Source: Cetorhinus maximus (Eukaryota). Taken from it: DNA of 64,000 bases. The stretch spans positions 28,272,001-28,336,000 of the forward strand of contig NC_135901.1 of NCBI RefSeq assembly GCF_964194155.1. Reading direction: 5' to 3'. Positions within the stretch are counted from its first letter, which is position 1, and each line of letters begins with the position of its first letter. Of the stretch, positions 1,880 to 53,742 are shown piece by piece. Both the position numbers and the translations under genes were made by a program. The notes beneath the pieces are model-generated. The model ran no database searches, had not been told where the DNA came from, and saw only the letters and a list, made by a program, of their open reading frames with translations.

Positions 1880-2236
1880 TTGTTGCGAATATATTGGTTC
1901 ATATTTGAAATGGATCATAATATCAAAGGTGTTTTAAAGGTAAAATATATTTATTTGTTTTTCTGTTTGGAACTTCTCAAAGCATGCCGCGTTGCCACGG
2001 AGATGGGCTGTACAGGTTAGAAGTTTCTTTTGTTTAATTTATTTGCCTGTTTCTCAGAGAAGACAGTTACAGATTTCATCTTGTCCAGGCTACAGCTGAC
2101 TTCACTTCGTGTGAGGGGAAAATAAGTTGGACGATTTGCCCAGCTTTAAGCCAGAGGAGGAAATCTCCAGTGGTCCGAAAGGTGTGAGGAATGGAGTTTT
2201 TTAAAATATATATATTTTTGTGGCATATTGTGTTAT
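1880..2236 (+). mobile_element. LTR-like element start (TGTT...) inserted in the Z1 3'UTR
   Basis: Homologous to the insert at ~40631, and at the same 3'UTR position. The empty site is seen at ~61640. Confidence 0.5.
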
Positions 2237-2384
2237 NNNNNNNNNNNNNNNNNNNNNNNNNNNNNNNNNNNNNNNNNNNNNNNNNNNNNNNNNNNNNNNN
2301 NNNNNNNNNNNNNNNNNNNNNNNNNNNNNNNNNNNNNNNNNNNNNNNNNNNNNNNNNNNNNNNNNNNNNNNNNNNNNNNNNNNN
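2237..2384. other. Assembly gap (N run)
   Basis: Run of n bases. Confidence 1.
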
Positions 2385-3282
2385 TTAAGCTGGGCAAAAT
2401 TTAATAGAAGACAGGTTGTCTGAGGGGGTTTAAAACATGAAAGGATAAAGGTGTTAGATTTGAGGTACAAGTGAATAGGTTGGATCTAACATTTGCATTA
2501 TTAGATAAATTGAGTTTGTTTGAATATCAAAGGGAAGTCAGAGGTACAAAGAAACATGTTTGTATCTTGCAGGAGTTCCACAGGTAAACAGAAGAGGGTA
2601 TATGACATTGTATTGACCCAAAAGCAGAGGAAAAAATAGAAACACAAAAGATTTTATATTTGGAAGGATTTGAGGTTCAAAGAGGTGTGAGAACAATGGA
2701 ACATGAGGTGAAAGTGGGGGGGAAAAGATATTTTAGAGTTACTGGAGCTGACTTGAGAGCTGTTAGCTGTAGCTTTAGGCTGGGGGAAGAGGTAGTTTGA
2801 ATCAGCATCCAGTCAAACCAGAGAAGTCTTGGGCTGCAACAGTCCTGTTCTGAAGGCTTGGATTTCCACAGCAGAGTGGAAGGGAGTTACAGGTCATGTG
2901 GTATGCTTTTATGAAAGTTACAGCAGTTTGCCTTAGGTGATATTACTGGATTTTTATAGTTCAGCATCTATAAGCGTGTGTTGCCTGGAAAGTGTTTACT
3001 TGTGGGTCTGACCAAGTAGGGAGTCTTTTGGGGGATTGTGTTATAAGACTAATTTGAACTGTGCAACTGTAATCTTGTGTGCATAAGTTTTTGTTTATTC
3101 TTGTTAATAAATAATTTACTTTTAATTTTTAAAATCCCAAATCTCTTACTGGACTTGTTGCTGCTGCGATCAGTACGTTTACTTTCTAATTTTCAGAATA
3201 CAAAAAAGGGTATGGCCTGTAAGCCAAGTTTCCCTCTGGGATTTGGTTTGTGCAGCAGTTAACATCAGCTGTGGTTGTAACA
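2385..3282 (+). mobile_element. LTR fragment, related to the 7344-8281 solo LTR
   Basis: Shared tgttaataaa...gccaagtttccc...gatttggt and terminal TAACA. Confidence 0.5.
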
Positions 3283-3619
3283 ATGGTGAAAAGCAGTTGG
3301 CCTTGTGGCAGAAGGCAATCAGCTTGAACCGTTAGCTTGGACAGAGCTGTGAAGAAGCTTTGGGAGCCGACTGGGAAAAAGCAGTTGGTCTGTCCAATGT
3401 CAGCTCAAGAAGGCAGTGGAATCCTCACAGAGGGAAAGAACTCTGGAAGTCTGAGTGCCAGGCTGGGAAACTGGGGAGAAATCAAAGTAAATTCCAGAGG
3501 GCTGTGGCATACCTTCGGGTTGGTCCCAAAAGAATGTGAATGAACCATCAAGATTTCAAAAGAGAAGGGAACTCTTAGGGAGGAAGTGAAGGGAAAACTA
3601 GATTCATTACCCTGTTAGA

Positions 3620-4475: not shown

Positions 4476-4808
4476 CCGCACACCATCCTGCTCTCATGCC
4501 CACATGTCTGTCCTTAGCCTGCTGCAATGTTCCAGTGAAGCCCAACGCAAGCTGGACGAACAGCACCTCATCTTCCGATTAGGCACTTTACAGCCTTCCG
4601 GACTTAACATTGAGTTCAACAACTTCAGACCATGAACTCCCTCCTCCATTCCCACCCCTTTGTGATCCCCATTTTTCAATATTCATTTTTAATTTTTATT
4701 CACTTATTTTTATATATTTCAATCTCTATTCATTGTTTTATCCCCACCTTATCTTATTTTCAATCTTTTTTCCCACCAATGTCCCCCCCCCCGCTTCACC
4801 ACCCCCCC
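4476..4808 (+). mobile_element. 5'-truncated PLE fragment (GIY-YIG C-terminus + 3'UTR)
   Basis: RKLDEQHLIFRLGTLQPSGLNIEFNNFR, the same C-terminus as the other PLE copies. Confidence 0.85.
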
Positions 4809-4809
4809 A

Positions 4810-5288
4810 ATTTACTTTTGTTGGTAAGTGACAATGCTAAGACCAGACCTTGTTTCCTCTTTGGTAGGGACGTAACCCGTGTCCACATATCCGCTTCATT
4901 CACACTGGTCGTGTGGCTCAGACTCCGAGAACATCGGCGGGTAATCAGACCCTGACAATTTCCACTTGCTTTCAGCCATTTCTCACAAAAGCTACTCGGG
5001 TTGTAAGCCTCTGTTTAATATTTTATTTTCCTCTAGTTACCAACATTCACCATTAGACAAGCATTCTCTGTTACCATGTTATAATGTTGACAGCCTGATG
5101 GCGAAGGAAGAAACTGGAGCTAATCTTTACTTGGTATAGATTTATTCACCGAGTGAAACATTACAGGTATATACCTTTTGACTTGACTCCACTCTATGTC
5201 AGTAAGGGTCTCCTTATATGTGCTCAAGTAACGATCTAATACATGATGTCCACCCGTATATACTTAACCTCAATTCACACAATCAACA
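4810..5288 (-). mobile_element. GalEa-like Ty1/Copia 5' LTR (5077-5288), PBS and gag start
   Basis: 212-bp TG...CA LTR with AATAAA and PBS TGGTAACAGAG (tRNAiMet-like). gag MAESKWKLSG starts at 4979. Inverted paralogue of the copy starting at 17675. Confidence 0.7.
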
Positions 5289-5315
5289 GCCACAGTCAGG
5301 GCATCTAAAAGGTCT

Positions 5316-6410
5316 CTAATCGGTGTGACTGTCACGGTGTGTCAGCAGCTCGGATGAACAGGTGAATCCCTTCCCACACTCAGAGCAGGTAAATGGCCTC
5401 TCCCTGGTGTGAATTCGCTGGTGTCTCAGCAGGGTGGATCGATCACTGAATCCCTTCCCACACTCAGAGCAGGTGAATGGCTTCTCCCCAGTGTGAACTC
5501 GCTGGTGTGTCAGCAGATGGGATGACTGGGTGAATCCCTTCCCACACTCAGAGCAGGTGAATGGCCTCTCACCGGTGTGAACTCGCTGGTGTGTCAGCAG
5601 ATCGGATGACCGAGTGAATCCCTTCCCACACTCAGGGCAGGTGAACGGCCTCTCCCCGGTGTGAACTCGCTTGTGTGTCTGCAGCGTGGATGGCCGAGGG
5701 AATCCCTTCCCACACACGTAACAGATGAATGGCCTCTCCCCAGTGTGAAACCGCTGGTGAGCCAGCAGGTCGCATGACCGAGTGAATCTCTTCCCGCATT
5801 CAGAACAGACGAGCCAGTCCCCGGTGTGAACACGCTGGTGTGTCAGCAGGTAGGATGACCGAGTGAATCCCTTCCCACACTCAGAGCAGGTGAATGGCCT
5901 CTCCCCGCTGTGAACTCGCTTGTGCATGAGCAGGGAGGATGAATCACTGAATCCCTTCCCACACTCCAAGCAGGTGAACGGCCTCTCCCCAGTGTGAACT
6001 CGCTGGTGTCTCCGCAGGTGGGATGAATTACTGAATCCCTTCCCACACTCAGAACAGGTGAACGGTCTCTCCCCAGTGTGAACTCGCTGGTGTGATTGCA
6101 GGCTGAATAACTGTCTGAATCCCTTCCCACAGTCAGGGCAAGTGAACGGTCTCGCCCCAGTGTGAACTCGCTGGTGTGACTGCAGGCTGAATAACTGACA
6201 GAATCCTTTCCCACACTCAGGGCAGGTGAATGGCCTCTCCCTGGTGTGAACCCGCTGGTGTGACTGCAGGTGAGATGACCGAGTGAATCCCTTCCCACAC
6301 TCAGAGCAGGTGAATGGCCTCTCCCCGGTGTGACTGCGCCAATGAATTTCCAACGCAGATGGGTATTTGAATCCCTTCCCACAGTCCCCACATTTCCACG
6401 GTTTCTCCAT
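5316..6410 (-). CDS. C2H2 zinc-finger protein Z2, 13 tandem fingers, no effector domain
   Basis: Intact 364-aa ORF of CxxC-x12-HxxxH repeats with TGERPF linkers. Upstream exons at 8873-8922 and ~8995-9040; last-exon acceptor at 6763. Confidence 0.92.
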
Positions 6411-7343
6411 GGTGCGCGTATCCTTGTGTCTCTCCAGGTGCTACGATCAGCTGAAGCCTCGTGCTCACACAGAACACGTGTACAGTCTCTCTCCGCTGTG
6501 AATGGTGATGTTTTTCTCAAGCTGCGTAACTGGTTAAAATTGTTCCCACAGTCAGTCTCTCACTCGGGTGTGTGTGTCTCGGTGCTTTTCCAGTCACACT
6601 GATGCTTAAAACCTTTTGAAGCAGACAGAACAGACAAACATTTCTCCTTCCAGATTCAAAGGCTGATCATATTCAGGTCCCGATGAGTCGGGTGAGTCTG
6701 TCAAATCTTGACGTGATGTTTGGTTTGAGATTTCTGTCAGCAAATCCTCTCCTTCTAATATCCTGCTAAAGGAGTTTACAAAAGTCATTATTGTCAGTAC
6801 AGGTTAGAAATTCAGAACAGACAATTCTAATTTCTGTGGAACATTCTTTCATCTCTCATTCCCCAAAAGCAGTAAATCCCCATCCCACACGCTCTCACTC
6901 CATTCTCACTCTGCTGCACCTAAGATACACCCAACATTACTGCACTAAAAATGTGTCTAATACACAGTGCTCAATTACATGATTAGAGATTCATGGTGCT
7001 GTGGGGATGAACTTTATTTCAACAGCCAGTGGTGATGTCCTGGAACCCACCGCCTATGAGGGTGGTGGTTCCAGAGACGATCAATAATTTCTAAATGAAA
7101 TTGAATTGACACTTGAAGGAAATGAACATGCAGGGGAACGGGGGTATAGAAGGGGAATGGGATTGACTGGATAGCTCTACAGAGAGTTGGTATGGACTCG
7201 AGTTGTCAAATGGACTCCTTCTGTGTCAGAATTACTCCATCATTGGAAATATATTAAGTAGCTACAGGACTGTCCTCCAAGACTAGAAGGATAACAAATG
7301 AACTTTATGACAAAACTTTCAATAATATATCTAAAGTTTCCCC

Positions 7344-8719: not shown

Positions 8720-9447
8720 GCCTTAAATGTCCGCCACCTCCTGGGGAAACCACCCCTTTTATTGTGAACATTAGGAAAGAGACCATCCTTTTAGCCGGAC
8801 AAATAAATGTGTCAAGCTGAGGGAGCAAAGGATGTCAATTTCTTTAAGAGAGAGAGAGAGACCTGGGCCAACCTTTCCAGAGTCTGCACCCTCCCTGGAT
8901 TCACTTCCTTTCCCTTCAGTTCCTGCAAGTTAACAATTTCCCCCCAGAATAAAAGAAATGGAAAGGGGGAGAAAAGAAAGTGTTTTACTCACAGATGGTG
9001 GACACAGGAGGAAGTTTTAATCTTCATTCACACAAAGCCCGCGCTTTGATTGGCTGGAGGACCAGAGTCCTTCCGGTCCTCCAACTCTTTCCAAAGGTCA
9101 GTCCCTCAGCATGACGGGAATGGGCGGGCTCTTCCCCGCACATGCGCAGTTCCCCCTCTCCCGAGTTCTCCGAGCGGCTTCTCGCTCTGGTCGGAGCCGG
9201 TTGCCTGGAAACCTTGGCTCGAGGAGGGGGAGGGGGAACAATGGTGGGGGGGCGGGGCCCCCGTGTCCGCGCGCCGGGCCCCCGTGTCCGCGCGCCGGGC
9301 CCCCGTGTCCGCGCGCCGGGCCCCCGTGTCCGCGCGCCGGGCCCCCGTGTCCGCGCGCCGGGCCCCCGTGTCCGCGCGCCGGGCCCCCGTGTCCGCGCGC
9401 CGGGCCCCCGTGTCCGCGCGCCGGGCCTGCAGACTGGTACCCGAGGA
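8720..9447 (-). promoter_or_regulatory. Z2 promoter, exon 1 and mini-exon module
   Basis: Reverse complement of 3950-4472 with the same motifs. Confidence 0.75.
9255..9427. repeat. Perfect 21-bp GC-rich tandem repeat x8
   Basis: (gggcccccgtgtccgcgcgcc)8. It is single-copy at the paralogous sites ~3970-3995 and ~55390-55415. Confidence 0.97.
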
Positions 9448-9543
9448 TAAAAGCAAAAAACTGCGGATGCTGGAAATCCAAAACAAAAATAAAAATACCT
9501 GGAAAAACTCAGCAGGTCTGACAGCATCTGCGGAGGGGAACAC

Positions 9544-11050: not shown

Positions 11051-12021
11051 CTGGAAAAAACAAAAAGGAGGGGGAAAAATCGGAAAGGGGGTGGGGATGG
11101 AGGAGAGAGTTCATGATCTAAAATTGTTGAACTCAATATTCAGTCCGAAAGGCTGTAAAGTGCCGAGTTGGAAGATGAGGTGCTGTTCCTCCAGTTTGCA
11201 TTGAGCTTTACTGGAACAATGCAGCAAGCCAAGGACGGACATGTGGGCATAAGAGCAGGGTGGAGTGTTGAAATGGCAAGCGACAGGGAGATCTGGGTAA
11301 TGCTTGCGGACAGAACGAAGGTGTTCTGTAAAGTGGTCACCCAGTCGCCCCTTTCTGATTTTTCCCCCTCCTTTTTGTTTTTTCCAATAATTTATATAGA
11401 TTTTTCTTTTCCCACCTATTTCCATTATTTTTAAATGTATTTCCATCCATTGTTTTATCTCTACCTTTTAGCCTTTTTCGATTCCTTCACCCCACCCCAC
11501 CCCACCCCCACTAGGGTTATCTGTACCTTGCTTGTCCTGCTTTCTACCCTTAATTAGCACATTCCTTTAGATAATATCACCACCTTCAACACCTCTTTGT
11601 CCTTTTGTCTATGACATCTTCTGGTTGTCTCCTCCTATCACTGGCCCTCTATGCAGCTCTCTTGTCCCAACCCCCCCTTAAACCAGCTTATATTTCACCC
11701 CTTTTCTATTTTTCCTTAGTTCTGGTGAAGATTCATGCGGACTTAACTGTTCCTCTCCACAGATGCTGCCAGACCTGCTGAGTTTTTCCAGGTATTTTTA
11801 TTTTTGTTTTTGTTTTCGATTTCCAGCATCCGCAGTTTTTTGCTTTTATCTTAAGGTACAGATAGCCCTGGGGGAAGGGATCGAAATAGGCTAAAAGGTA
11901 GAGATAAAACAATGGATGGAAATTCATTTAAAAATAATGGAAATAGGTGGTAAAATAAAAATCTATATAAATTATTGGAAAAAAGGGGGATCAGAAAGTG
12001 GGTGGGGATGGAGGAGAGAGT

Positions 12022-13392
12022 TCACGATCTAAAATTGTTGAACTCAATATTCAGTCCAGAAGGCTGTAAAGTGCCTAGTCGGAAGATGAGGTGCTGTTCC
12101 TCCAGTTTGCGTTGAGCTTCACTGGAACATTGCAGCAGGCCAAGGACGGACATGTGGGCATGAGAGCAGGGTGGGGTGTTGAAATGGCAAGCGACAAGGA
12201 GGTCTGGGTCATGCTTGCGGACAGACTGAAGGTGTTCCACAAAGCGGTCACCCGGTCTGCGTTTGTTCTCTCCAATGTAGAGGAAACCGCATTGGGAGCA
12301 GCGAGGGAATTGAGGGAAGTGCAAGTTAAATGCTGCTTCACTTGAAAGGAGTGTTTGGGCCCTTGGATGGTGAGGAGGCGGGAAGTGAAGGGGCAGGTGT
12401 TGCACCTTCTGTGGTTGCATGGGAAGGTGCCATGGGAGGGGTTTGAGGTGTAGGGGGTGATGGAGGAGTGGACCAGGGTGTCCCGGAGGGAACGATCCCT
12501 GCGGAATGCCGCCGGGGGGGTGAAGGGAAGTTGTGTTTGGTGGTGGCATCATACTAGAGTTGGCGGAAATGGCGGAGGATGATCCTTTGAATGTGGAGGC
12601 TGATGGGGTGATAAGTGAGGACAAGGGGGACCCTATCATGTTTCTGGGAGGGAGAGGAAGGTGTGAGGGCGGATGCGCGGGAGATGGGCCAGACACGGTT
12701 GAGGGCCCTGTCAACCACCGTGGGTGGAAAACCTCAGTTAAGGAAGAAGGAAGACATGTCAGAGGAACCTTTTTTGAAAGTGGCATCATCAGAACTGATG
12801 CGACAGAGGCGAAGGAACTGAAAGAATGGGATGGAGTCCTTACAGGAAGCAGGGTGTGAGGAGCTGTAGTCAAGGTAGCTGTTGGAGTCGGTAGGCTTGT
12901 AATGAATATTGGTGAACAGTCTATCACCAGAAATTGAGACTGAGAGGTCAAGGAAGGGAAGGGAAGTGTCAGTCGTGGACCATGTGAAAATGATGGAGTG
13001 GTGGAAATTGGAAGCAAAATTAACAAATTTTTCCAGGTCCAGACGAGAGCATGAAGCAGCACCAAAGCAGTCATCGATGTACCGGAGAAAGAGTTGTGGG
13101 AGGGGGCCGGAGTAGGACTGGAACATGGAATGCTCCACATGCCCCATAAAGAGACAGGAATAACTGGGGCCCATGCGGGTACCCATAGCCACATCTTTTA
13201 TTTGGAGGAAGTGAGAGGAGTTTAGGGAGAAATTGTTCAGTGAGAGAACAAGTTCAGCTAGACGGAGGAGAGTAGTGGTGGATGGGGATTGTTCGGGCCT
13301 CTGTTCGAGGAAGAAGCGGAGAGCCTTCAGACCATCCCGGTGGGGGATGGAGATGTAGAGGGATTGGACATCCATGGTGAAGAGGAGGCAGT
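12022..13392 (-). pseudogene. PLE RT + GIY-YIG endonuclease ORF, frameshifted
   Basis: MDVQSLY (motif A), QIKDVAMGTRMGPSY, FLRYIDD, CSQCGFLYIGE...R, ending in FNNFRS*. Confidence 0.9.
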
Positions 13393-13800
13393 TGGAACCC
13401 GAGGACGTCGCTGCACAGCAGAATGATTCCTATTGGCTGGTTCGGGAAGGGTTCCATTGTGGACGTCACAATGAGGAAGTTGGACAATGAGCTTCAGACT
13501 AAAACTTCCTCCTCTGGGCAACATCTGTGAGGAAATCAATGTTTCCCCCTTTCCATTTCTTTTCTCATTCTGGGGGCAAATTGTTAACTTGCAGGAACTG
13601 AAGGGAAAGGAAGTGAATCCAGGGAGGGTGCAGACTTTGGAAAGGTTGGCCCAGGTCACTCTCTCTCTCTTTTAAAGACATTGACATCCTTTGGTCCCTC
13701 AGCTTGACACATTTATTTGTCTGGCTAAAAGGATGGCCTCTTTCCTAATGTTCACAATTAAAGGGCTGGTTTCCCCGGGAGATGGCTGACATGTAAGGAG
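13393..13800 (+). promoter_or_regulatory. Z3 half-promoter, exon 1 and mini-exon (13595-13644)
   Basis: Homologous to the minus-strand half at 3770-3960, followed by the invariant mini-exon. Confidence 0.7.
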
Positions 13801-15461
13801 ACAATTTCAGGGCAATTAACTGTCCTGTATTTTAAGGGATTGCTCCTTATTTTGCCTTTTGCCCTGTATTTCTCAGACAGCCTGTTGGAAACTGATCCCG
13901 GGAATCTCCAGGGTGAGTTTGAGTGATTCGAGTGGGACTGCAAGTGAGTGAGTTGGCCAGCAGAGAGATGATGATGTTGTGACTAAACAAGATAAGTTGT
14001 AAGTTTTAGTTTATTTTAAACCCCACCCCTCCCACTATTATTGTCTCAAGAACCCTCCTCCTCACCTCCTCTCATATTGAAACCCAAACCACCATCCAAC
14101 TGCTCTCACGGTCACCAGCATCCCACCACCACCCACTCTCCAACCCCACGGCTGAAGTGTCCGTTATTTTATTTTGTAAGTCTTCTGCCCCCTGGACAAT
14201 ATAGTAATAGAGGACAAAGATATGTCTAATGTTGGGGGATTGGGGACACGTTAGCTATATTATTTATAGTTCTGTAATTAAGTTCATTTGTTATCCTTTC
14301 TAGTCTTGGAGAAGAGTACTGCAGGTACTTAATATATTTCCAGTGATAGTCATTATGACACAGAAGGAGTCCATTTGATAACTTGAGTCCAGATTGAATC
14401 TCTGTCGAGTGACCCAGGCAGTCCCATTCCCCCTTCTATATCCCCATTCCTCTGCATGTTCATTTCCTTCAAATGTCAATTCAATTTCATTTTGAAATTA
14501 TTGATCATTTCTGGAACCACCACCCTCATAGGCTGTGGCTTCCAGACATCACCACTGGCTGTTGAAACAAAGTTCTTCCCCACAGCATCATGTGTCTCTA
14601 ATCATGTAATAGAGTCCTGTGTGTTACACACATTTTTAGTGCAGTACTATTGGGTGTATATGAGATAAAGTAGGGTGAGAATGGAGTGAGAGTGTGTGGG
14701 GTGGAGGTTTACAGCTTTTGGGGAGCGAGAGATGAAAGAATGTTCCGTAGAAACGAGAATTGTCTGTTCTGAATTTCTATCCTGTACTGACAGTGATGAC
14801 TTTAGTAAACTCCTTTAACAGGATATTCGAAGGGGAGGATTTGCAGCCAGAAATCTCAAACCAAACTTCACATCAAGATCTGACAGAGTCACCCCATTCA
14901 TTGGGTGCTGAATATGATTGGCTTTTGAATCTGGATGGAGAAATGTTTGTCTGTTCTGTCTGCTTGCAAAGGTTTCCAACATCAGTCTGACTGGAAAAGC
15001 ACCAAGACACACACACTTGAGTGAGAGTGTTCCAGTGCACTGACTCTGGAAAGAGCTTTAACCAGTTACACAGCCTGAAAAAACATCACCATTCACAGTG
15101 GGGACAGGCCATACACGTGTTCTGTGTGTGGACGAGGCTTCAACTGATCGTTGAACCTGGAGAGACACAAGGACACATGCAGAATGGAGAAACCATGGAA
15201 ATGTGGGGACTGTGGGAAGGGATTCGAAGCCCCGTCTGAGCTGGAAACTCATCGATGCAGTCACACCGGGGAGAGGCCATTCACCTGCTCTGAGTGTGGG
15301 AAGGGATTCACTCAATTATCCGACCTGCAGATACACCAGCGAGTTCACACTGGGGAGAGACCCTTCACCTGCTCTGATTGTGGGAAGGGATTCACTCAAT
15401 TATAAAAACAGAATTACCTGGAAAAACTCAGCAGGTCTGGCAGCATCGGCGGAGAAGAAAT

Positions 15462-15502
15462 CAGTTAACGTTTCGAGCCTTCATGGCCCTTCGGCAGAAC
15501 TG
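15462..15502 (-). ncRNA. Minimal hammerhead-like motif
   Basis: CAGUU-CUGCCGA-A-GGGCC-AUGAA-GGCUC-GAAACGUU-AACUG. Confidence 0.7.
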
Positions 15503-16945
15503 AACCATAGTTAGAAGAAGGGAGAAATATAAATTGGTTTAAGGTGGGTGGGGGGGGGGGGGGGGGGTGGGGGTGGTGGGGGGGGGGGGGGTGAAAGAGA
15601 GACATTGAGGGTGTGGTGATTGTGGAGATGAGCAGATAATCAAAAGATGTCACAGACAAAAGGGTCCAAGAGGTGTTTTGTCTGAGAAAAGTGCTAATTA
15701 AGAATGGAAGACGGGATATTCAAAGTACAGCTCTAGTGGGGGTGGGGTGGAAAGGCTAACAAGGTTTTAGTTTTAGATTTAAAAATAATGGAAATAGGTG
15801 GGGAAAGAAGAATCTATATAAATATTGAGAAAAAAAAAGCGGGGGGGGTGGGGGGGGAAGAAACGGGGTGGGGATGGGGGGAGGGGGAGTTTAAGATCTA
15901 AAGTTGTTGAATTCAATATTCAGCCCGGAAGGCTGTAAAGTGCCTAGTCGGAAGATGAGGTGCTGTTCCTCCAGTTTGCGTTGGGCTTCACTGGAACAAT
16001 GCAGCAAGCCAAGGACAGACATGTGGGCAAGAGAGCAGGGTGGAGTGTTAAAATGGCAAGCGACAGGGAGGTTTGGGTCTTTCTTGCGGACAGACCGCAG
16101 GTGTTCTGCAAAGCGGTTGCCCAGTTTGCGTTTGGTCTCTCCAATGTAGAGGAGACCGCATTGGGAGCAACGAATGCAGTAGACTAAGTTAGGGGAAATG
16201 CAAGTGAAATGCTGCTTCACTTGAAAGGAGTGTTTGGGCCCTTGGACGGTGAGGAGAGAGGAAGTGAAGGGGCAGGTGTTGCATCTTCTGTTTGGGCATG
16301 GGGAGGTGCCCTAGCTGCGGGTTGAGGAGTAGGGGGTGATGGAAGAGTGGACCAGGGTGTCCCGGAGGGAACGATCCCTATGGAATGCCGCCAGGGGGGG
16401 TGAAGGGAAGATGTGTTTGGTGGTGGCATCATGCTGGAGTTGGCGGAAATGGCGGAGGATGATCCTTTGAATGCGGAGGCTGGTGGGGTGATAAGTGAGG
16501 ACAAGGGGGACCCTATCATGTTTCTGGGAAGGAGGAGAAGGCGTGAGGGAGGATGCACGGGATATGGGCCGGACACGGTTGAGGGCCCTGTCAACGACCG
16601 TGGATGGAAAACCTCGGTTAAGGAAGAAAGGACATGTCAGAGGAGCTTTTTATATAGATTCTTCTTTCCCCACCTATTTCCATTATTTTTAAATCTAAAA
16701 CTAAAACCTTGTTAGCCTTTCCACCCCACCCCCACTAGAGCTGTACTTTGAATATCCTGTCTTCCATTCTTAATTAGCACTTTTCTCAGACAAAACACCT
16801 CTTTGACCCTTTTGTCTGTGACATCTTTTGATTATCTGCTCATCTCCACAATCACCACACCCTCAATGTCTCTCTCTCCCCCCCCCCCCCCCCCCCCCAC
16901 CCACCTTAAACCAATTTATATTTCTCCCTTCTTCTAACTATGCTT

Positions 16946-16985
16946 CAGTTCTGCGAAGGGCCATGAAGGCTCGAAACGTTAAATG
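16946..16985 (+). ncRNA. Hammerhead-like motif with a 1-nt core deletion
   Basis: cagtt-ctgcga-agggccatgaaggctc-gaaacgtt-aaatg. Confidence 0.55.
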
Positions 16986-17674
16986 ATTTCTTCTCCGCTG
17001 ATGCTGCCAGACCTGCTGAGTTTTTCCAGGTAATTCTGTTTTTGTTTTGGATTTCCAGCATCCGCAGTAGCTTTTAGCTTTTTGTTTTTATATTCACTCA
17101 ATTATCCTCCCTGCTGACTCACCAGCGAGTTCACACTGGGGAGAGACCATTCACCTGCTCTGAGTGTGGAAAGGGAATCATTCTGTCATCTCACCTGCAG
17201 AGACACAAGCGAGTTCACACTGGGGAGAGACCATTCACCTGTTCTGAGTGTGGGAAGGGATTTAGTGACTCATCCACATTGCTGACTCACCAGCAGGCTC
17301 ACAGCGGGGAGAGGCCGTTCACGTGTTCCGTGTGTGGGAAGGGATTCACTCGGTCATCCCACCTGCTGAGGCACCAGACAGTTCACACTGGGGAGAGGCC
17401 TTTCACCTGCTCTGAGTGTGGGAAGGGATTCACTTGGTCATCCCATCTGCTGAGGCACCAGCGAGTTCACACCGGGGAGAAGCCATTCACCTGCTCCAAG
17501 TGTGGGAAGGGATTCAGTGATTCATCCGAGCTGCTGAGACACCAGCGAGTTCACACCGGGGAGAGACCGTTCACCTGCTCTGAGTGTGGGAAGGGATGCA
17601 CATGTTCATCGGAGCTGCTGAGACACCAGACAGTTCACACTGATTAGAGACCTTTTAGATGCTCTGACTGTGGA

Positions 17675-18815
17675 TGTTAATTGTATCAATTGACGTTAAG
17701 TATATACAGGTGGGTGTCATGGATTGGATAGTTACTTGAGCACATATGAAGAGACTCTTACTGACATAGAGTGTAGCCAAGTCAGAAGGTATATACCTGT
17801 AATGTTTCACTCAGTAAATAAATCTATACCAAGTAAAGACTGGCTCCAGTTTACTCCTTCACCATCAGGCTGTCAGGATTATAACATGGTAACAGAGAAT
17901 GCTTGTCTCATGGTGAAGGTTGGAAACTAAAGGAAAATAAAATTTCAGACAGAAACTTACAATCTGAGTAGCTTTTGTGAGAAATGGCTGAAAGCAAGTG
18001 GAAATTGTCAGGGTCTGATTACCCGCCGATGTTCTCGGAGTCTGAGCCACACGACCAGTGGAAGAATGAAGTGGAGATGTGGACACGGGTTATGTCCCTA
18101 CCAAGGAGGAAACAAGGTCTGGTCTTGGCATTGTCACTTACCAACAAAAGTAAAATCAGAAGCAAAGTATTTAGTGAGCTAGATGCTGGTCGGTTGGATA
18201 CTGATGAAGGTTTGGATCTTCTATTCGGGTTCATTGATGAGATTTACAAGAAAGATGTTCTAGTGGATGCCTATGAAGCATAGATGGACTTTGACAGGCT
18301 TCGAATGAGGGCAAAAGCATCTGTAACAGATCTGGATATCTCAACAGAAGACAAGATTAGAACAGCACCAATAGGTGAATGAACCCCAGGGGTGACCAGG
18401 GAACAGTTAACAGGTGTTTCAGGTCTGACTCAAAATATCATTATGTGATGAACTGCCCAAAGTGGAAAATCAGGGTCTTCGAAGTGACACATGATACAGA
18501 GAATTCTAAGGCTGAAGATGATGATGATGATCACTCTGAAGGAATTGTACTAGTCACAAGGAGCTTTGGTCCAGTGATGAGTATGTTAGTCACAGACTCA
18601 TTCAACTATGCTGTGTTAGACAGTGGCTGCACCTTGACAGTATGTGGATTAGATTGGTGAACATGTTACCCAGATTCACCTCGTACTGAGGATCGACACA
18701 AGGTTAAGGAGTGTGAAAGTTGGACTTGTCTTGGTTTGGTGATGTCAACGCATTGAAGTCACTAAAAAGAGTGGGGATTCCCTGCAAAATAACTGGAGTC
18801 AGCCTCTTTATCAGT
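17675..18815 (+). mobile_element. GalEa-like Ty1/Copia element 5' part: LTR 17675-17886, PBS, degenerate gag and protease
   Basis: TG...CA LTR with AATAAA at 17817, PBS TGGTAACAGAG, gag 17984-18283, knuckle remnant CFRSDSKYHYVMNC and protease AVLDSGCT. Confidence 0.75.
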
Positions 18816-19594
18816 GTTAACTGTTAAACTTCACCCCGATGACACATTTGTGTAATTAATAAGGCTTATATTACCAAATTATACTGTATGTAAGCTTAAC
18901 GATGAACGGTCTTCAATTGCCTGGCTCTTTCAGTTCCAGATACTGTAATGTAGCTTTAAGAAAAAAAAAACTGGTGTTAAGGTCAGTGTGGAAGAATAAA
19001 ATACATCTACAGGACAACTAAGGGTTAAACAGTTAAAACCATAGTGGAATACTACAGCACAGTTCCCTCTTTTGTTCTAGCAGGCACACCTGCAACTGCC
19101 AGCTAATTGAGCAGGAAAGGAGAAAAGGAGTATCTTAAACAAGCTTCCTAGAATCCTTGAGACAAGCCTAGGATGTCTGCCCCCAACACAAAGAGACAGG
19201 ATCAAGCAATGGTCATCTGTTCTCTAAGAGTGTACACCCCCTAGCACTAAAGATAAGGTCAAGCATGGTTATCTATTCTCTGTCTGACTTTTTATTACTA
19301 TGTGGGCTTCCCCCAATATCCTGTATAGTCATTACTTAGAATAGACTAATTGTGTGTTGCATGCCAAAGACAATGATTCTCAATGTAATTGATTATTGAA
19401 AGTTAGACAGTCTTATCACCTTCAAGCTCTTTGATATGTACGACTTCTACTATAAATATGTATGTACTCTGATGCTTCCTCAGAGTGTCAGCTAGCTCCA
19501 TTGTATGCTGCTGGGCTCTCCGTGATATCACGATTTAATAAAGGCTTCCGAGACAAACCTCCTGGGTCTGAGTGTTCTGTTTTCCGCGACAAAT

Positions 19595-19612
19595 TGGCGA
19601 CGAGGATGGGAT
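19595..19612 (+). promoter_or_regulatory. Primer-binding site, tRNA-Ser(GCU)
   Basis: TGGCGACGAGGATGGGAT is complementary to the 3' 18 nt of vertebrate tRNA-Ser-GCT (recalled, not searched). Confidence 0.85.
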
Positions 19613-20176
19613 CCGACTGAAGTCCAGTAACCTCTTAAATTGGAGAGGTGATTGAAATCCTGGGCCGTCGGATCTCTAAAAAAAGAACCCTCGCGGAGAA
19701 AGGGAGGAATAACTCTCCTAAGTTAGGGTGAGTACGAACTGCATCCTAGCTGAAAGGGGATTGCAGTGAATTAGCGTCCCAGCTGAGAAGGGGACTGCCA
19801 GTAAAAGGGTAGCTACCGACCAAAGAGACTTAAGTGACCCAAAGAATCGGAGGACTTGTTAAGGAACTCTTAAACACCGGTGAGCGCATAGGGTAGGAAA
19901 TGCGCCGCGCTGTTAATTGTGTTTTCTTTTCAGAAAAATGGGAGGTCGCAACAGCAGAGCGGGCTCTGCCACTCCCCCCGCTTCGCAAAGTACTAAGAAC
20001 AAACCGAAACCGGCGAAACCGGAGCTTAAATCAGGAACTTTGAAGATGGGCAAGAAAACGGAATGAAAAATAGATGGAGGTAAAAAAAAGTAGTAGTATA
20101 CCCAGGGGTTCGAGTCCCATGGAGGTGAAAAGTAAGTAATTTCTGTGTTTTCTTTTGTGTATCTTATTAAGTAAAA

Positions 20177-20540
20177 TGGGAAATATGACATCAAAGAAAC
20201 CCCAGGTTCCCCCTTTGAAGGGAACCCCAAATGCTTATATGTATGTCCATTACGGTCCTGAAATTGTCCAACATGTTTCTGATTGGGTTAAATGGACTCA
20301 AAGTAAAGGAGAGAGCTTCCCACCAGCTGGAACTTTTAATCGGGACAGATTTGAGCGCTTATAATATGTTTTAAGGGAGGTAGATCGTCCGCTACTGAAT
20401 TTTCTGTAACTTTAAAAAAAGAATGAATTGATCTAAGTTACAAGAGCTGTTTGTGCTGAAAGAGAGAGAGAGAGAGAGAAAGGGTACCCCTAGGGGGTTA
20501 ATGAGCAATTTGCAAGCAGCAGCAGAGAAAATGTGAGCTT
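20177..20540 (+). pseudogene. gag matrix-like remnant
   Basis: MGNMTSKK (myristoylation-like) ...GTP...W.KWT...FP..GTF, followed by stops. Confidence 0.6.
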
Positions 20541-22079
20541 TCGTCAGTTTGAAGGTCCCTATAGGTGGAGCCTTCAAGATCCCTTTATTCCCCCCACTGC
20601 TACTCGAAGATTCGTTTAGAGTTAAGTTCAATATTAAAGGAGTATCGATACATACCTTTATATATGTGTTTGTGTGCAATGAAGCATTTGCATGTGAGCT
20701 TTAATGTGTTTTCTTCCCTGAATTGTCTTGTGTGTGTAGTTGAGCACTTTAGAGTCGAAAGCCCCAGATTAGATTAAAGGAAAAGTTTATTCAAATATTC
20801 CAAAGTTTTGAGTATAAGGTTTGAGTTGAGATTTCTGGCAAAAATTGTAATTTGAAGGTAGTGTAAAGATAAAACAGGGCTTGCCTTCGTTTGAGATGAA
20901 CCAACCCTTGTACCACCCTCTCGCAGACTAGTAGGGAATAACCCTCATCATCAGCTTCCAAGCTGATTGGGATTAATACATACGAGTTCATATTCTAAAA
21001 TTCTGAGAAAAAGAAATTACTTGAAATTCAGAAGGATTCTAGGAAAACCAAAAGACATAAACACAAGGTCTAGATAGTTCCAATGGATAAAAAGGGGTTT
21101 CTTATGAAAGAGATGAATTAAATATGAAAGGAAATCTGCTTTCCAAAAGCACTGGAATCTGAATTTGGGACAATCTTGAGATGTAAAGTGCAGTGTAATT
21201 TAACAGGTTACTTTTGAATCACTAGGATGCTATCTAAGATAAAGAATGTGTCGATAAACATACTTAAATTATAACTTGGATCCAAATCATTACACATGAA
21301 AAAGAGGTTGTTTTAATTTTGATAGTGTAAATTACAGTTCTTACAAAGTTTAAAAATTTGAGGTTTGGTTCTCGATAAAGTTCTCAAAAGGAAATATTCA
21401 TTTTAAAAGGCCTGACAACAATTGGCACTAATTCAAATGCTGCAAGCTTTTGTGTTTATAAGTCTGTTCCCAAAATATGAAGCTAAGCTCAAGACCTTGG
21501 CAAAGTTTGGCAGAAATCCAATTTTTGGCCGAGTTAATGAATCTGGGATAATTCTAAAAGAAAAGGGTCAGACACAATTTAGTGGGCTACCTTTAAGACA
21601 ATAAAATCTTTGAGAAGAAGAAAAGGAAGCAAAACACGTCAATACCTGATTTCTGTTTTAAAACTGTTATGAGAATACTTTATTGGATTGTAAAGTCTCT
21701 CCAGACAACCTGAACAAGATAAGATGGTAGCTGTTGCAAGTGTAATATGGTATGAGGCAAGTAGGAGAATGAGTTAGGGAAAGAGGACATAATGTACAAA
21801 CTGTTTTAAGGGAAGTGAATTTGATAATCTGGCCATCAACTGAGGCATTGGAACTGCACAGGGGGAGATAAGCAAAGATCTAGAGACAGAGATCCCCGTT
21901 GAAATGGAATAGTTAATATGGCCTAAAGAGTAAGGAAACATTTTAAACAATCAAGACAATAGAGAAACTGAACTCAAGAGAACCTTAGGATGATCATGGT
22001 CAGGAAAGAAAACTTAGAGGTAAAACTATGAGGAATCTGTAGTTCAGGAATTGAAATGTAAGGAGAAATAATACTTAAC

Positions 22080-22830
22080 AACAATTTACCACAAGATGGA
22101 TACAGGTAAAGGGAAAGCTGGAAAAAGGCTAAATAGATGTATTACTGATTATATTAATGTGCCTGTGAGCTACAAAAAGTAAAACCATAGGATTAACACC
22201 TTGATGACAGGCAGAGTTAAGCGGTTCCCAGAGAGAACCATCACTGGAAGTGAAGATACTGAGCCATTGAAAGATAGGATAAGAAGGTGCGTTGTAGAGT
22301 TGTTTAAGGAATTGAGGTCTGACATGAGACAGCAGCAGGAGAGAGTAAACTGGAAGGAGTGGGGGTGCCTACCCAGATGGATTCAGATCAGGGAACTCAT
22401 TTCACAGGGAGAGTCATTAAAGAAGTATGTAATCTTATGGAGATTAAACAGAAATTCCATATTCCTTACCACACCCAGAGTCCAGGGATGGTGGAAAGGA
22501 TGAACTGAACTTTAAAAACATCTATAGCCTAAACAATTCAGGAGACAGGCAACAGCTGGACCACAGTATTGCCCAGCATTCTGATGCGGCTTAGGGCTAC
22601 ACCAAATAAGACTACCAGGTTCACCGCATTGAATTGATAACAGGAAGGGCTATGCAATTACCTGAAGGTATTATAGTAGGAGGTGTAGGGCCACAGAAAT
22701 GAAAAATACAGGACAATGTAAGGGAATTAAGTAGGAAATTGCATGAGTTAAGGAAGGAAGTCAGAGACCGACAGGTGATTAAGGATATGGAAACAGGCAA
22801 ATCCAAAGAGAAAGATACATGACAATTGAC
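22080..22830 (+). pseudogene. Integrase remnant 1
   Basis: FHIPYHTQSPGMVERMN*TLK...W..VLP..LM.LRATP from ~22455. Confidence 0.75.
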
Positions 22831-22880
22831 CAAGCGGTAACCCAGAGAATGGGAGCCGATGTTAATGTCTCCACAGATCT

Positions 22881-24055
22881 ATGATCCTGGTCATGGGCAT
22901 ATCAGTACTGGCAACAAGGTCGGGGATCATCACTGCTCATCCTGCACCGCAGGAGGAACTTTGGTACAGCATGGACAGTGCTGAATGCTACACGCAAAGG
23001 GGAATGATAAATGTAACAGTAGGAGAACAAGTGCTTTCAAATTGTAGTAAGGGTTTGCTTCAGATCGAGCATGGGAGGTCCGCCACTACCCAGCCACCTC
23101 CCACCTCTACTTTCACAGTCTGAGTAGAGATAATTGTAGCCCCTCAAACCACACCGACTGATCCATCTTGTCTGACTATGCATCCAGGACCGACGAATGG
23201 TTTGGTACTGGTTAATCAGAAGTTTTGTATGATAATGTACACCATGAGCTGGTACCCGTAGTCTTGAATATATCGGGAATCGTCCTGCCCCAATGGTGCT
23301 CAATCCATACCCAAGCACTCTATAAGGCTCTGAAGTGCCAATTGATGACTGAAACAGTTGTTCAATGGCGAGATGCGATCAGGCTTGGGAGGGAACCGTG
23401 TTAAGCGCAGCCTGATAAATGATGCCACTATGATATTCAATATAGGGACATCATTGGTTAATCCAAAGTCTGGCTACCGTGCTCGAAAGTCATGCGGGCA
23501 CTATCAATAAATTAATTGAAATAGGAAAAAATATTTCAGACGAAGTGAGCAGAAATGATGTATGCAACACCTATGGATCTTGGGCACTGGAACAAGCCCG
23601 AGAAAATTTAAGACAGATTAATGAAGGGGTAGTCCCTTTATGGGTAACTAATGAGCATTTATTGAATCTCTCACGACACAGGAATCATGACTTGACTGGT
23701 TGCCAGCTCAGGGGTTTAACACGTGTATGTAGAATGAATGTTGAATGTATAGTGAATAGTAATATGCTAATAGGCATTGTATTAGTAATAAAAACAGAAT
23801 TACCTGGAAAAACTCAGCAAGTCTGGCAGCATCGGCGGAGAAGAAATCAGTCAACGTTTCGAGCCCTCATGGCCCTTCAGCAGAATGCTGAAGGGCCATG
23901 AGGGCTCGAAACGTTGACTGATTTCTTCTCCGCCGATGCTGCCAGACTTGCTGAGTTTTTCCAGGTAATTCTGTTTTTATTTTGTTTTGGATTTCCAGCA
24001 TCCGCAGTAGCTTTTAGCTTTTTGTTTTTATCATTGTATTAGTAATACCTGTCAT
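22881..24055 (+). pseudogene. env-like gene 1 (non-gamma type), degenerate and 3'-truncated
   Basis: Splice acceptor ctccacag just before ATG 22881, hydrophobic signal-like N-terminus, Cys-rich with heptad-like segments, in the post-integrase position. Confidence 0.5.
23791..24031. mobile_element. 241-bp palindromic mini-PLE
   Basis: Perfect arms 23787-23882 and 23886-23981 with a 3-nt loop. 16-bp TSD cattgtattagtaata (23775-23790; 24032-24047). Confidence 0.95.
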
Positions 24056-24059
24056 ACCT

Positions 24060-24720
24060 ATGTCAATGACATAACCCAGGCAAGACACCCACAGTGACTG
24101 CTGGTACGGGACCCCAGCCATGGGGCCCATTTGTACACCTACAAATGGACTTTATACAAATGCCTAAATGTATGGAATATAATTATGTTTTAGTTCTAGT
24201 ATGTTTGTTCTCGCGATGGGTGGAGGCGTATCCCACCCGACGAAATGATGCTGTTGTTGTTGTTAAATTGTTGTTCATTTTACTGCTAAAGTGATAAAGG
24301 AACTGTTGAAGGCCTTACAATGCAACCATCACCTTTCCTGCCCATACCACCCCTAGTCTACTGGAGCGGTGGAAGGACAAAATGGTATTCTGAAAAACAA
24401 ACTAGCTAAATTATGTGAAGAAACCAGTTTGAAAGGGCCTGAAGCTCTACCCTTGGCGCTCATGACTATGTGCTCTCACCCTAACTATCTCAAGAGCTTG
24501 CATATACAGGTAGTAGAAGCTCAGAAAAAGCCCACCATTGAAGACTGCCATCAATACCAGCCCGGGGACCTAGTCCTAGTAAAGACCTTCAGGAGAAAGA
24601 ACTGTTTGGAACCTCGATGGGAAGGGCCTTTCCAAGTCCTGCTCACCACCCATATGGCCATAAACGTTGAAGGACGCCCTTGTGGATCCACGCATCGCAC
24701 GTCAAGCGGACGCTGACCTC
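24060..24720 (+). pseudogene. Integrase remnant 2 (gamma/epsilon-like)
   Basis: PFVHLQMDFIQMP...VCLFSRWVEAYP; YHP*STGAVE..NG.LK; LEPRWEGPFQVLLTT. Confidence 0.85.
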
Positions 24721-24919
24721 GGACGGAAGTGCTTGTGCAAGAACTTTAACTGAGCCGTCGGAATGCTGACTCTGATTTGGATCCTGTCCTGCGTGGTCCT
24801 TGCGGGGGCATGGAATACCAATTCTGCAGTTCAATGAATGCAGGCCGTAGCCTCGCAAGTTAATCGGACTAAATGTTGGATTTGTACTCATTTTCTTCTA
24901 TGCAAAACAGCAGCTGAAT

Positions 24920-25030
24920 TGCATGAGAGGGTGGAAAGGACCCTACCTTGTGCTGCTAACAACTCGAACGGCCCTGAAGATTAAAGGGAAGGAAGATTGG
25001 GTCCACGCCACTCGTTGTAAAAAAGAAACA
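24920..25030 (+). pseudogene. Third integrase fragment (GPY/F C-terminal domain only)
   Basis: WKGPYLVLLTTRTALKIKGKEDWVHATRCKK. Confidence 0.8.
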
Positions 25031-25078
25031 TTGTCAGGCAGTCCTATAACCGTCATTACCAGTGAACTAATTTGCATT

Positions 25079-26451
25079 ATGTATCGGATACTGTCTTTTG
25101 CTATATTCTGTCTTTTTGCTATATTCTGTGAAGTATACCCAAAGGATTCTCACCCCAACACCTTTTTGTCTTTATGCCGCGCCTATGCTAGACAAGTAGG
25201 ACAGGGCGCCTGTTGGATATGTGCCCAGACTCCCCATCATGGAGGTGAGTCAAGCACCTATCAGGCAAAACCAATGACTGAGGAAGAAGTGAAGGATCTC
25301 ACAAATTTCCACACCCAGTCAGATGATGCAGAATCCAATATGTTCAGGGGATGGTTCCGTCGCTCTCCACCTGCTAATGGGTGGAAATACAGATCATGGG
25401 ATAAGAATCAAGCCTCCTCAGGAGCCAATAAACGCCACCTGTTGGTGTTCGAACCTTGCAACCGATACCTATAACCTGGGAAACAGTAGTTGCCAAAACA
25501 CCATATCTACTAGCCCTGGTAGTTATGATCCTCAAAATCCTCTAAATGGTACATACTGGGTTTGTGGGGAAAAAGCATATCTCTGGCTGCCTGGGATGTC
25601 ACAATTATCTTCCTTCTTTAATCAAGATACCGGAAGTTTGGGCAAGGATGCTACCACTCCCACCTGGAGTGGCTGCTGCTACCTAGCATATTTGAATCCC
25701 TATCTTCGCTATATAAGTAAATTAGATATTCACCCGCATCTACGTCTACATCGCCGTGACATCTCGGAATCCGAACGATTCTGGATGATTGCTATCCCCT
25801 CTTATGGAGCTGCTCGTAATTCCCGAGAGATTATCAACCTGGCAGCTGCACTTGAAAAATTTGCTAATTCAACGGCTGATGCTTTGATTGAGACACAGAA
25901 ACAGATTTCAGCTACCACTACTGAAATGATAGCCCTACGCCTGACCGCCTTACAAAATAGAATGGCCCTTGATTTCCTCCTAGCTGAAAAAGGTGGCACT
26001 TGTGCCATGATAGGTTCAGAGTGCTGCACTTGTGTGCCTGGTGTTTCTGAGAACATTACTAACCTGGGACAGCATGTTATGGATAAAGTGCAAGAAATAA
26101 AGAAAGTTGGGGAAAGACAGTAATTTTTATAACAAGGATTCCTGGTGGGCTACAGTAATGGGGTGGTTCCCTGGTTGGGGAAGTTGGCTGCTGTATGTTT
26201 TAATTGGGTTGGTCATAGCATGTGTTATAGGGTGTTGTGCATGTGTTGCTCTGCGAATTTGCTGTTCCCAGGTTATTAACAGTGTCTCTACTGGATTAGG
26301 AGGAACTCCAATTATTCCCCAAATGGGGCGCACTGGCCCCAGCGAAGCCCACTGGTGGGGAGAGAAAGTTTACCCCGCCAGAGATCGGCCTTTTCCTTAT
26401 GGTTATGAACCCCCATATGATAATGAAGATACTATTCCTCATTGGTGTTAA
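25079..26451 (+). pseudogene. env: Gamma-type env, about two frameshifts
   Basis: Signal peptide, CWIC, furin site RLHRR, ISD LQNRMALDFLLAEKGGTC, CX6CC and TM helix. Confidence 0.92.
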
Positions 26452-29720: not shown

Positions 29721-30749
29721 GTGTTGAATAGAATCAGCGAGCTGGTGTTCTAGAATCATGGAATGGTTACAACACTGAAGGAGGCCGTTCAGCCCATTCT
29801 GTCTGTGCCAGCTCTCTGTAAGAGCAACTCACCCAGAGCCACTTGCCCACCTTTTCTCCACAACCCTGCCAATTTCTGCTCTTCAGATAATGATCCAGTT
29901 CTCTCTGGAAAACCATGACTGAATCTGCCTCCAGGTCCTTTCATCCCTGGTGTCATTCTCGTCAATCTCCTCTGCTCCCTCTCTAAGAACTTCACATCTT
30001 TCCTGAAGTGTGGGGCCCAGATATCGGGTTCCATTCTAGAGGGATAGAATTGCAAAGCAGGGAGGTTATGTTCAACTTGTTTCGAACCAGAACTGAGAGC
30101 ATTTACCCCTCAGGAAAGGCTGGGGCTGCTTTTCTCTAGAAAAGAGAAGACTGAAGGGTGACCTGATGGAAGTCTTTAAGATTATAAGGGGGGTTCAATA
30201 ATCCAATAGGGATTTCATGAGAAACCTCTTTACCCAGTGAGTGGTGAGAATGTGGGACTCACTACCAGAGCGACTGGTTGAGGTGAATAGCATGAATACA
30301 TTTAAGGGGAAGCTAGATACATACATGAGGGAGAAAGGAATAGAAGGATATGCTGATGGGGGGAAATGAAGAGGGGCGGGTGGAGGCTCATGTGGAGCAT
30401 AAATACTGACAGAGACCAGTTGAACCGACTGGCCTGGCCCTGTGCTGTTGACTCAATGGAACAGAGACAAATGTACTTCCTTCAGATATACCTACAGTAG
30501 TAAGAAAAGCATTATTTACGATCAAGGTTAAAATAAATGTACTTCATCAGCTTTTGTGGATTATTTCAGTGGAAATGTGCACTCCCAGGCTCAAAGAGCA
30601 TCAGCCCACTGGAAGCAAAGTCATGAAACCGGCAAGTCCAGCAGAAAGAAACCCTCCGACCCTCCCACTTCACCAAGTGTCAGAATGAACATGGTTCAGT
30701 CCTGGATGTGATTAACAGCAGCAAAAACAGCAGAATCCAAACCCTGGAA

Positions 30750-45725: not shown

Positions 45726-45789
45726 ATTTTTTTTTTGAAAATTATACTTTATTCATAAAATACCTGAAAGAACATTACAAACATTTCTA

Positions 45790-53151: not shown

Positions 53152-53742
<591 letters not shown>

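Follow-up and report, generated by a model that had tools for sequence, protein, structure and literature searches.

Penelope-like retroelements (PLEs) that encode an endonuclease (EN+) are known to leave 5'-truncated copies arranged head to head, as units bounded by a target-site duplication (TSD), with a tail at one end and with partial tandems. Such insertions have been described for Pen2a_Av of Adineta vaga (PMC3846280), in Fig. 2 of PMC8557442 and for Penelope of Drosophila virilis, which shows inverted terminal repeats together with a 34-bp repeat (PMC2377424); dual hammerheads located 100-700 bp apart on opposite strands were also reported (PMC4209133). The origin of these inverted, one-tailed insertions is stated as unresolved in PMC11167929, PMC3846280 and PMC8557442. 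In vitro, the anole Poseidon element PAc cleaves and extends both target strands, and its reverse transcription (RT) starts at two internal sites that lie downstream of the hammerhead and bound the tail; the protein was modelled as a dimer (PMC11167929). The model in the main text of that report includes one priming event and leaves the later steps open, and stagger, TSD and inverted arm are not described there. In the twin priming of LINE-1 (L1), both nicks prime on one RNA and the cDNA ends are joined by short complementarity; the lengths of the two arms are correlated (R 0.76), and sequence is duplicated internally when the downstream cDNA runs past the internal primer (bioRxiv 10.1101/2024.08.27.596794). 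Here we analysed a stretch of 64,000 nt from the shark Cetorhinus maximus (contig NC_135901.1, positions 28,272,001 to 28,336,000; hereafter the window, whose own numbering is used below) containing two inserts that are copies of an abundant PLE of the Neptune/Nematis type, with the layout already described for PLEs. Our results led us to propose that the two-armed inserts of this family probably originate by twin priming at two U-rich sites of one RNA, followed by end-joining of the two cDNAs, after a double cut of the target with a stagger of 14 nt.

Insert 1 (15404-17091, 1688 bp) is flanked by a 14-bp TSD (15390-15403 and 17092-17105), whereas insert 2 (23791-24031, 241 bp) lies between the copies of a TSD of 16 bp at its maximal extension (23775-23790 and 24032-24047), the first and last bases of which could equally come from the element; all these copies are given on the plus strand. 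In both inserts an inverted left arm ends in the first T-run past GGTAATTCTG (site 1), a forward right arm continues through a tail up to GTTTTTAT (site 2), and no 5' end is found at either border. The longer arm of insert 1 carries a GIY-YIG coding stretch on the minus strand, which fixes the polarity, each outer end representing a 3' end of the sense RNA. This inverted, tail-less arm (15404-16651, minus strand) matches positions 2029-3257 of a 3310-bp natural reference unit and contains the end of the RT thumb and linker, the GIY-YIG exon of the open reading frame (ORF) and the pseudo-long terminal repeat (pLTR), with its 3' end at site 1 facing left. It meets the forward tailed arm (16649-17091, plus strand; reference 2855-3310), which consists of pLTR with its 3' end at site 2, in an overlap of ~3 nt (16649-16651), and exceeds it by ~830 nt. 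The tail of insert 1 (17044-17091, plus strand) comprises the 48 nt that separate site 1 from site 2. In insert 2 the tail-less arm (23791-23885, minus strand; reference 3162-3260) and the tailed arm (23886-24031, plus strand; reference 3165-3310) are bluntly joined at TCAGTT, a hot spot for 5' ends in the family, the left arm being 3 nt longer. A preliminary description of this DNA, made from the letters alone, had given the TSD lengths as 14 and 16 bp, the borders as lacking 5' ends and the right arm as running ~50 nt further than the left one, and all of this was confirmed; the termini of the two inserts, which it called identical, are nearly so, the right arm of insert 2 having a 6-nt duplication before the tail. 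As a single TSD pair encloses both arms, two separate insertions placed back to back were ruled out, and chance or an assembly artefact was ruled out by the mismatched-flank controls given below and by the recurrence of the arrangement across the genome.

Two exact 49-nt patterns from the pLTR gave 13,803 and 13,510 matches in the 4-Gb host genome, and the reversed controls gave 0. From the first 100 matches of each pattern on contig C1 we obtained 154 regions, 200 anchors and 160 insertions; the pattern sits upstream of both sites and favours neither end, but it misses arms that end within it. The sample comprised 86 two-armed insertions (80 with a TSD score of at least 8) and 74 one-armed insertions (47 with a TSD). 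After leaving out the 33 inserts lacking a TSD score of at least 8 and four others, in which the apparent TSD consisted of element sequence, was complex or represented a 48-bp duplication, 77 TSD-bounded two-armed and 46 one-armed inserts were analysed; one false TSD was additionally left out of the one-armed motif test. When mismatched flank pairs were compared, a repeat score of at least 8 appeared in 15/400 and 19/400 trials (~4-5%). A second set consisted of 51 loci elsewhere in the genome, ascertained by tail or ORF queries, and a targeted search for upstream tail-less ends gave 32 loci, 8 of which were usable after setting aside 14 internal indels, 8 unresolvable copies of one duplicated locus and 2 one-armed inserts without TSD. 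These eight copies (L309-L316) represent one junction with an upstream 3' end that was multiplied by segmental duplication on contig C24 and on small contigs.

The 3' ends of the 200 anchors were bimodal, 103 falling at site 1 and 93 at site 2, with 4 read-through cases. Among the TSD-bounded two-armed inserts, a tailed end was paired with a tail-less one in 75 of 77, compared with ~48% expected if the ends were independent (p ~1e-21); the other two were site 1/site 1, and no site 2/site 2 pair was found. The second set behaved in the same way, as its 26 TSD-bounded two-armed inserts were all mixed, 22 of them with a TSD of 13-16 bp. Of 88 parsed tailed ends, 87 fell into a window of 11 nt, and the tail-less ends of two-armed inserts lay within +5 to +11 in 55 of 79, another 15 being located 2-57 nt further upstream. 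The endpoints, which had been presented as fixed and defined, are therefore narrow windows rather than fixed bases. Site 1 was also the lone 3' end of 45 of the 74 one-armed inserts, and its end distribution was alike in one- and two-armed inserts (median +8, Kolmogorov-Smirnov p 0.88). In the targeted search, all eight usable TSD-bounded upstream tail-less ends had a tailed partner. Microhomology at the ends amounted to 1.0-1.8 nt, in excess of the 0.4 nt used for comparison. The preliminary description had also read a T-run plus AT matching the target at both junctions. The AT found at the tailed end belongs to the element itself, as shown by full-length copies, which go on with ...TTTTTATCTCTGTG into the 5' UTR and ORF; at the tail-less end the last primer base was A in 48% and T in 28% of cases, which rules out this motif as a target rule of the family.

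The target site provided a second line of evidence. The TSDs of two-armed inserts had a mode of 14 bp (exactly 14 in 36/77, and 13-16 bp in 62/77), whereas those of one-armed inserts were shorter (median 11, 13-16 bp in 15/46; p 5e-10), a contrast that persisted at a stricter TSD score. Moreover, a single motif is common to both outer flanks of the two-armed TSDs, located on the strand expected to be nicked: +1 is not A in 92%, +3 is a pyrimidine in 95% and +5 is G in 46% (n=116). With a matrix trained on these flanks we scored 30 one-armed inserts having a TSD of 12 bp or less, and the score peaked exactly 14 nt from the primed end, where it reached 0.85, the value for the TSD end being -1.95. 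In a permutation test that took the best of 18 offsets in random flank for comparison, p was 3e-4. As read from these sequences, the simplest interpretation is that one cutting geometry, a 14-nt 3' stagger, would serve all events, the second overhang being kept if it primes and trimmed if it is only joined.

Together, these data would fit the following course of events. The RT-endonuclease, probably two-fold symmetric, would nick both target strands 14 nt apart and generate 14-nt 3' overhangs; this spacing is proposed because a shared motif is found on the 3' side of each target end, with 14 nt between the two. One overhang would then prime at site 1 and the other at site 2, both sites being U-rich and separated by 38-48 nt, and the site-1 overhang might alternatively prime up to ~57 nt upstream with 1-3 nt of pairing. 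The cDNA started at site 2 would copy the tail and then displace the site-1 cDNA, creating the duplication, or would sometimes halt at site 1. Synthesis would end by fall-off, at the 5' end of the RNA or at a structural block, and host end-joining would fuse both cDNAs head to head. In about half of the events a single overhang would prime, at either site, and the other, once trimmed, would be joined to the end of the cDNA; the result would be an ordinary insert whose TSD is shorter. Twin priming is recognized by two opposite cDNA segments within one TSD pair, each at a target 3' end, and this arrangement was observed in the 77 inserts. The L1 form, with a poly(A) first primer, a chance second site and mostly non-overlapping arms, was not observed, as the sites are internal and mostly defined; the process of this element works like twin priming but not in its L1 form. 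The earlier proposal that both nicks prime at two pLTR sites and that the cDNAs join internally thus gains from the pairing, the TSDs, the flank motif, the tail-only arms and the centres described below, and it agrees with the in-vitro behaviour of PAc, which cleaves and extends both strands and uses two start sites at the borders of the tail (PMC11167929), except that it is not obligatory: it is largely supported that second priming is a frequent, optional pathway whose endpoints are windows.

The arms and their centre junctions were examined in the same inserts. In 70 simple mixed inserts 37 pairs ended within 20 nt of each other, while the tail-less arm was longer in 22 and the tailed one in 11 (bias p 0.08). 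The near-equality is largely due to the TCAGTT hot spot (window 16945-16950 and 23883-23886), which is found ~30 nt past a TTATATTT box: 48/144 arms of two-armed and 13/74 one-armed inserts have their 5' ends at reference 3153-3165, and 53/113 nearby 5' ends are inside -8 to +6 of the A in TCAGTT. TCAGTT with its upstream box resembles the consensus of a TATA-initiator start site, and it is also the start of a hammerhead-like fold. The centres showed extra bases in 30/72, blunt joins in 7/72 and overlaps of 1-5 nt in 35/72. The extra bases were often local duplications, presumably of the kind left by polymerase-theta joining. The two arms of an insert were concordant at 369/388 subfamily-diagnostic positions (95%, compared with 58% when shuffled), and rare variants were common to both arms in 5/46, a low number that argues against much later conversion. 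The arms overlap in all but a few two-armed inserts and lack poly(A). At L169 and L225 an arm made of tail only ends at site 1, as would be expected of a product without duplication, formed if the polymerase coming from site 2 is stalled by the site-1 primer on the same RNA.

Several observations weigh against twin priming on one RNA, for which the evidence consists of finished genomic junctions. The ordinary 5'-truncated one-armed copies were slightly the majority among the 160 sampled insertions: the two-armed share, corrected and counted by arms, is ~45%, and the remaining ~55% are one-armed with an ordinary 5' end. A predominance of such copies, or random endpoints, had been named beforehand as an outcome that would speak against the mechanism; the first of these was reached by a narrow margin. 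There are exceptions to the pairing, namely the two site-1/site-1 pairs with TSD and, without TSD, one site-2/site-2 and one site-1/site-1 pair. The excess of end microhomology is partly inflated because the TSDs were extended maximally, and microhomology was zero at 43/93 site-1 and 26/88 site-2 ends. The tailed partners of all eight upstream ends would also fit ends that were joined and not primed. Away from the 5' hot spot the coupling of arm lengths is weak (3/17 within 25 nt, 0.8 expected, p 0.046). The partner arm was strictly the nearest sequence in just 6/51 pairs (12 ties), and a match at the diagnostic sites would likewise be expected of arms derived from two RNAs of one active subfamily. 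The excess of near-perfect palindromes is also predicted by a fold-back of the cDNA, and the unequal arms could be later central deletions.

This last alternative, in which a cDNA primed at site 2 snaps back, copies itself to about site 1 and jumps to the second overhang, with unequal arms arising by later deletions of the centre, would account for the 37/70 arm pairs ending within 20 nt, for the same subfamily alleles in both arms, for the 7.3-kb perfect palindrome at L119 and for the upstream tail-less ends, which have tailed partners and more microhomology. We nevertheless consider it rather unlikely: one-armed inserts most often have their 3' end at site 1 (45/74), with an unchanged distribution and nick motif, the tail-less arm exceeds the tailed one in 22/33 unequal pairs, and tail-only arms halt at site 1, so that solo site-1 ends, longer tail-less arms and tail-only arms would all need extra deletions. 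In addition, 37/72 centres are blunt or have extra bases, with no base-paired fold evident, and a related PLE extends both strands in vitro (PMC11167929). Twin priming could also take place on two RNAs held by an asymmetric dimer, one subunit always using site 1 and the other always site 2. This explains the duplication without strand displacement, agrees with the unequal arms of 33/70 pairs and with a nearest-sequence test that was not decisive for arm identity (6/51), but it requires an extra rule for the 75/77 mixed pairs; moreover, the tail-only arms at site 1 and the multi-kb arms, which are 99.4-99.7% identical and in L119 end at the same place, suit one template better, and we regard two RNAs as quite unlikely.

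The explanation in print for other PLEs is that self-priming of an antisense RNA yields a head-to-head hairpin that becomes integrated (PMC3846280), the tail resulting from endonuclease resolution of an intermediate (PMC8557442). Head-to-head palindromes are indeed abundant in our sample, as this route would have it. Nonetheless, it predicts neither the one-armed inserts at either site with trimmed TSDs nor the 14-nt motif and stagger, the centres are often not self-complementary, and in vitro the sense RNA was copied from two sites matching the tail ends (PMC11167929). For the shark family we find this explanation highly improbable.

With twin priming on one RNA as the preferred interpretation, the family can be compared with the systems described so far. 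It has the layout of the published EN+ PLEs, i.e., head-to-head truncated copies, a one-sided tail, a TSD and partial tandems; the TSDs in the published descriptions are of 8-10 bp (single examples) and the tails of 30-40 bp, whereas here the TSD has a mode of 14 bp and the tail is of ~38-48 nt. In those reports the layout was ascribed to antisense self-priming or endonuclease resolution, while here the pairing and the stagger were quantified. PAc, as presented in its report, cuts and extends both strands and has two start sites that bound the tail, as proposed here for the shark PLE. It belongs to the Penelope/Poseidon clade and its start sites are within the ORF, in an AC-rich stem, with a 5'-ATT motif and no primer homology; in the shark PLE, in contrast, the linker motif is that of Neptune/Nematis, the U-rich sites are located upstream of the ATG, the flank motif is a different one and 0-3 nt are paired. 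Regarding L1, the correlation of arm lengths is similar (R 0.76 for L1, rho 0.76 here). For L1 the second site is described as an internal match that arises by chance, far away from the poly(A), with internal deletion as the majority outcome, whereas the shark PLE uses for the most part a defined motif located at 38-48 nt from the first site, shows duplication as a rule, lacks poly(A) and has a near-constant stagger. The contrast drawn earlier, that duplication sets this element apart from L1, holds as a rule for the shark family, although a minority of internal duplications is described in L1 as well. The layout of PLEs and the two in-vitro start sites are thus already published; our analysis contributes the findings that the ends are paired almost strictly, that one- and two-armed inserts differ in their TSDs and that trimmed inserts carry the motif at 14 nt. 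Among the papers listed, judged by their entries and with subscription papers outside the search, we found no published proposal of twin priming or of a fixed stagger for PLEs.

The assignment of the element rests on the following features. Full-length units have the structure pLTR-ORF-pLTR, with a length of 3.3 kb and partial-tandem pLTRs, and open frames of ~917 codons are present in L118, L121 and L122. The ORF matches the RVT_1 profile at 405-566 (E 3e-6, 27.6 bits, under the cut-off of 29.6) and GIY-YIG at 819-854 (E 0.03), and KPADKG, YIDD, a CX4CxxC linker as well as, at the C-terminus, a GIY-YIG with internal cysteines can be recognized in it, together with VYCIRCSQCGLLYIGET followed by conserved His residues. 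One ORF with RT followed by a C-terminal GIY-YIG endonuclease, partial-tandem pLTRs, an inverted 5'-truncated copy and a one-end tail correspond to the EN+ PLEs as characterized in PMC8557442. The linker between RT and endonuclease carries CPRRRCNTC, an instance of the CX2-5CxxC motif that marks Neptune/Nematis and is absent in Penelope/Poseidon according to the same source; by its sequence the element fits the Neptune/Nematis type as defined there. The closest named homologue of the ORF is from the bamboo shark, other homologues being unnamed or "uncharacterized". A PDB sequence search with the ORF gave 0 matches at E 0.01, and a homodimer prediction for residues 15-330, run without use of an alignment, gave a score of 0.01, which speaks neither for nor against a dimer. 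In insert 1, the endonuclease coding stretch (15894-16310, minus strand; Pfam PF01541, 25.4 bits, cut-off 22.6), with a CX4CxxC linker motif upstream, is 5'-truncated and out of frame with the upstream part and represents a dead copy. A putative hammerhead lies upstream of site 1, with a CUGNNGA core and GAAA; pairing is kept in 91% of the cells for stems I and II, with one compensatory U-A/C-G change. The motif is present in the left-arm pLTR (15461-15503, minus strand; stem I TCAGTT/AACTGA, CUGNNGA core, stem II, GAAA) and, with a 1-nt deletion in the core, in the right-arm pLTR (16945-16988, plus strand). An Rfam scan of 15300-24200 gave no hammerhead family match and only microRNA-hairpin matches under the gathering score, which are due to the palindrome.

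The tail is not the end of an RNA, as in tandem and full-length copies it reads ...TTTTTATCTCTGTG into the 5' UTR, with the ATG of the ORF ~38 nt further on. Just before this ATG, a putative 96-nt GT..AG intron at L105 (1141-1237) encloses sites 1 and 2, its first part corresponding to window 17030-17091; if it is real, only unspliced RNA could be primed. Its AG is absent in L116, L118, L119 and L122, and no spliced joint for this putative 5' UTR intron was found among the assembled RNA contigs listed. Other full-length copies deserve mention. L118 (1618-8462) and L119 (1348-8693) are palindromes of ~7 kb, formed by two full-length units head to head with arms 99.4-99.7% identical, and in each of them a tailed end stands opposite a tail-less one and the TSD is of 14 bp. 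The full-length copies at L121 (2721) and L122 (4936) start exactly at site 1 of the upstream pLTR, their ORF being preceded solely by the tail, as if cDNA synthesis had halted where protein was bound; they resemble the "primitive" Penelope copy flanked by 34-bp repeats (PMC2377424).

With respect to the remainder of the window, the target of insert 1 is a host C2H2 zinc-finger array, in which its right TSD copy lies and whose frame is continuous across the empty site. Arrays of this kind, with an 84-bp period, are located at 1190-1800, 5240-6544, 15079-17750 (the one interrupted by insert 1), 30671-31474, 39696-40549, 53073-53792 and 60787-61559. More fragments of the same or related PLE families, mostly older, occur at 36-242, 4479-4661, 9460-9540, 11057-13406, 52282-52892 and 55902-55998, that at 11057-13406 being a complex cluster with a 1.5-kb ORF piece. 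Downstream of insert 2, retrovirus-like open frames (24851-26120) encode the C-terminus of an MLV-type integrase (PF18697) as well as env (PF00429). Another multi-kb repeat, strongly skewed in GC and AT and probably a long interspersed element, is present in two copies that are 95-97% alike (45009-48900 and 56500-59300), and tandem repeats are present at 9210-9461 (21 bp, GC-rich) and 34820-35553 (32 bp).

In summary, neither the element nor its layout is unusual for a PLE, and the data give predictions for the existing in-vitro system: nicks paired 14 nt apart, different start sites for each strand and one RNA per insertion. More tentatively, and at somewhat less than an even chance, the PLE may be seen as a two-fold symmetric machine that makes a fixed 14-nt staggered cut before synthesis and performs a programmed double priming on one RNA at two U-rich sites; the inverted pLTR with its tail would then be the normal product of twin target-primed reverse transcription (TPRT) with strand displacement, and the very common palindromes of 200-250 bp would represent run-off from the upstream pLTR to the transcript start. 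TPRT usually invokes a variable second-strand cut (PMC8557442), with which a fixed stagger would contrast, and this bears on the use of PLE proteins for DNA insertion. Furthermore, the mechanism would also account for a very large source of inverted repeats in the host genome.

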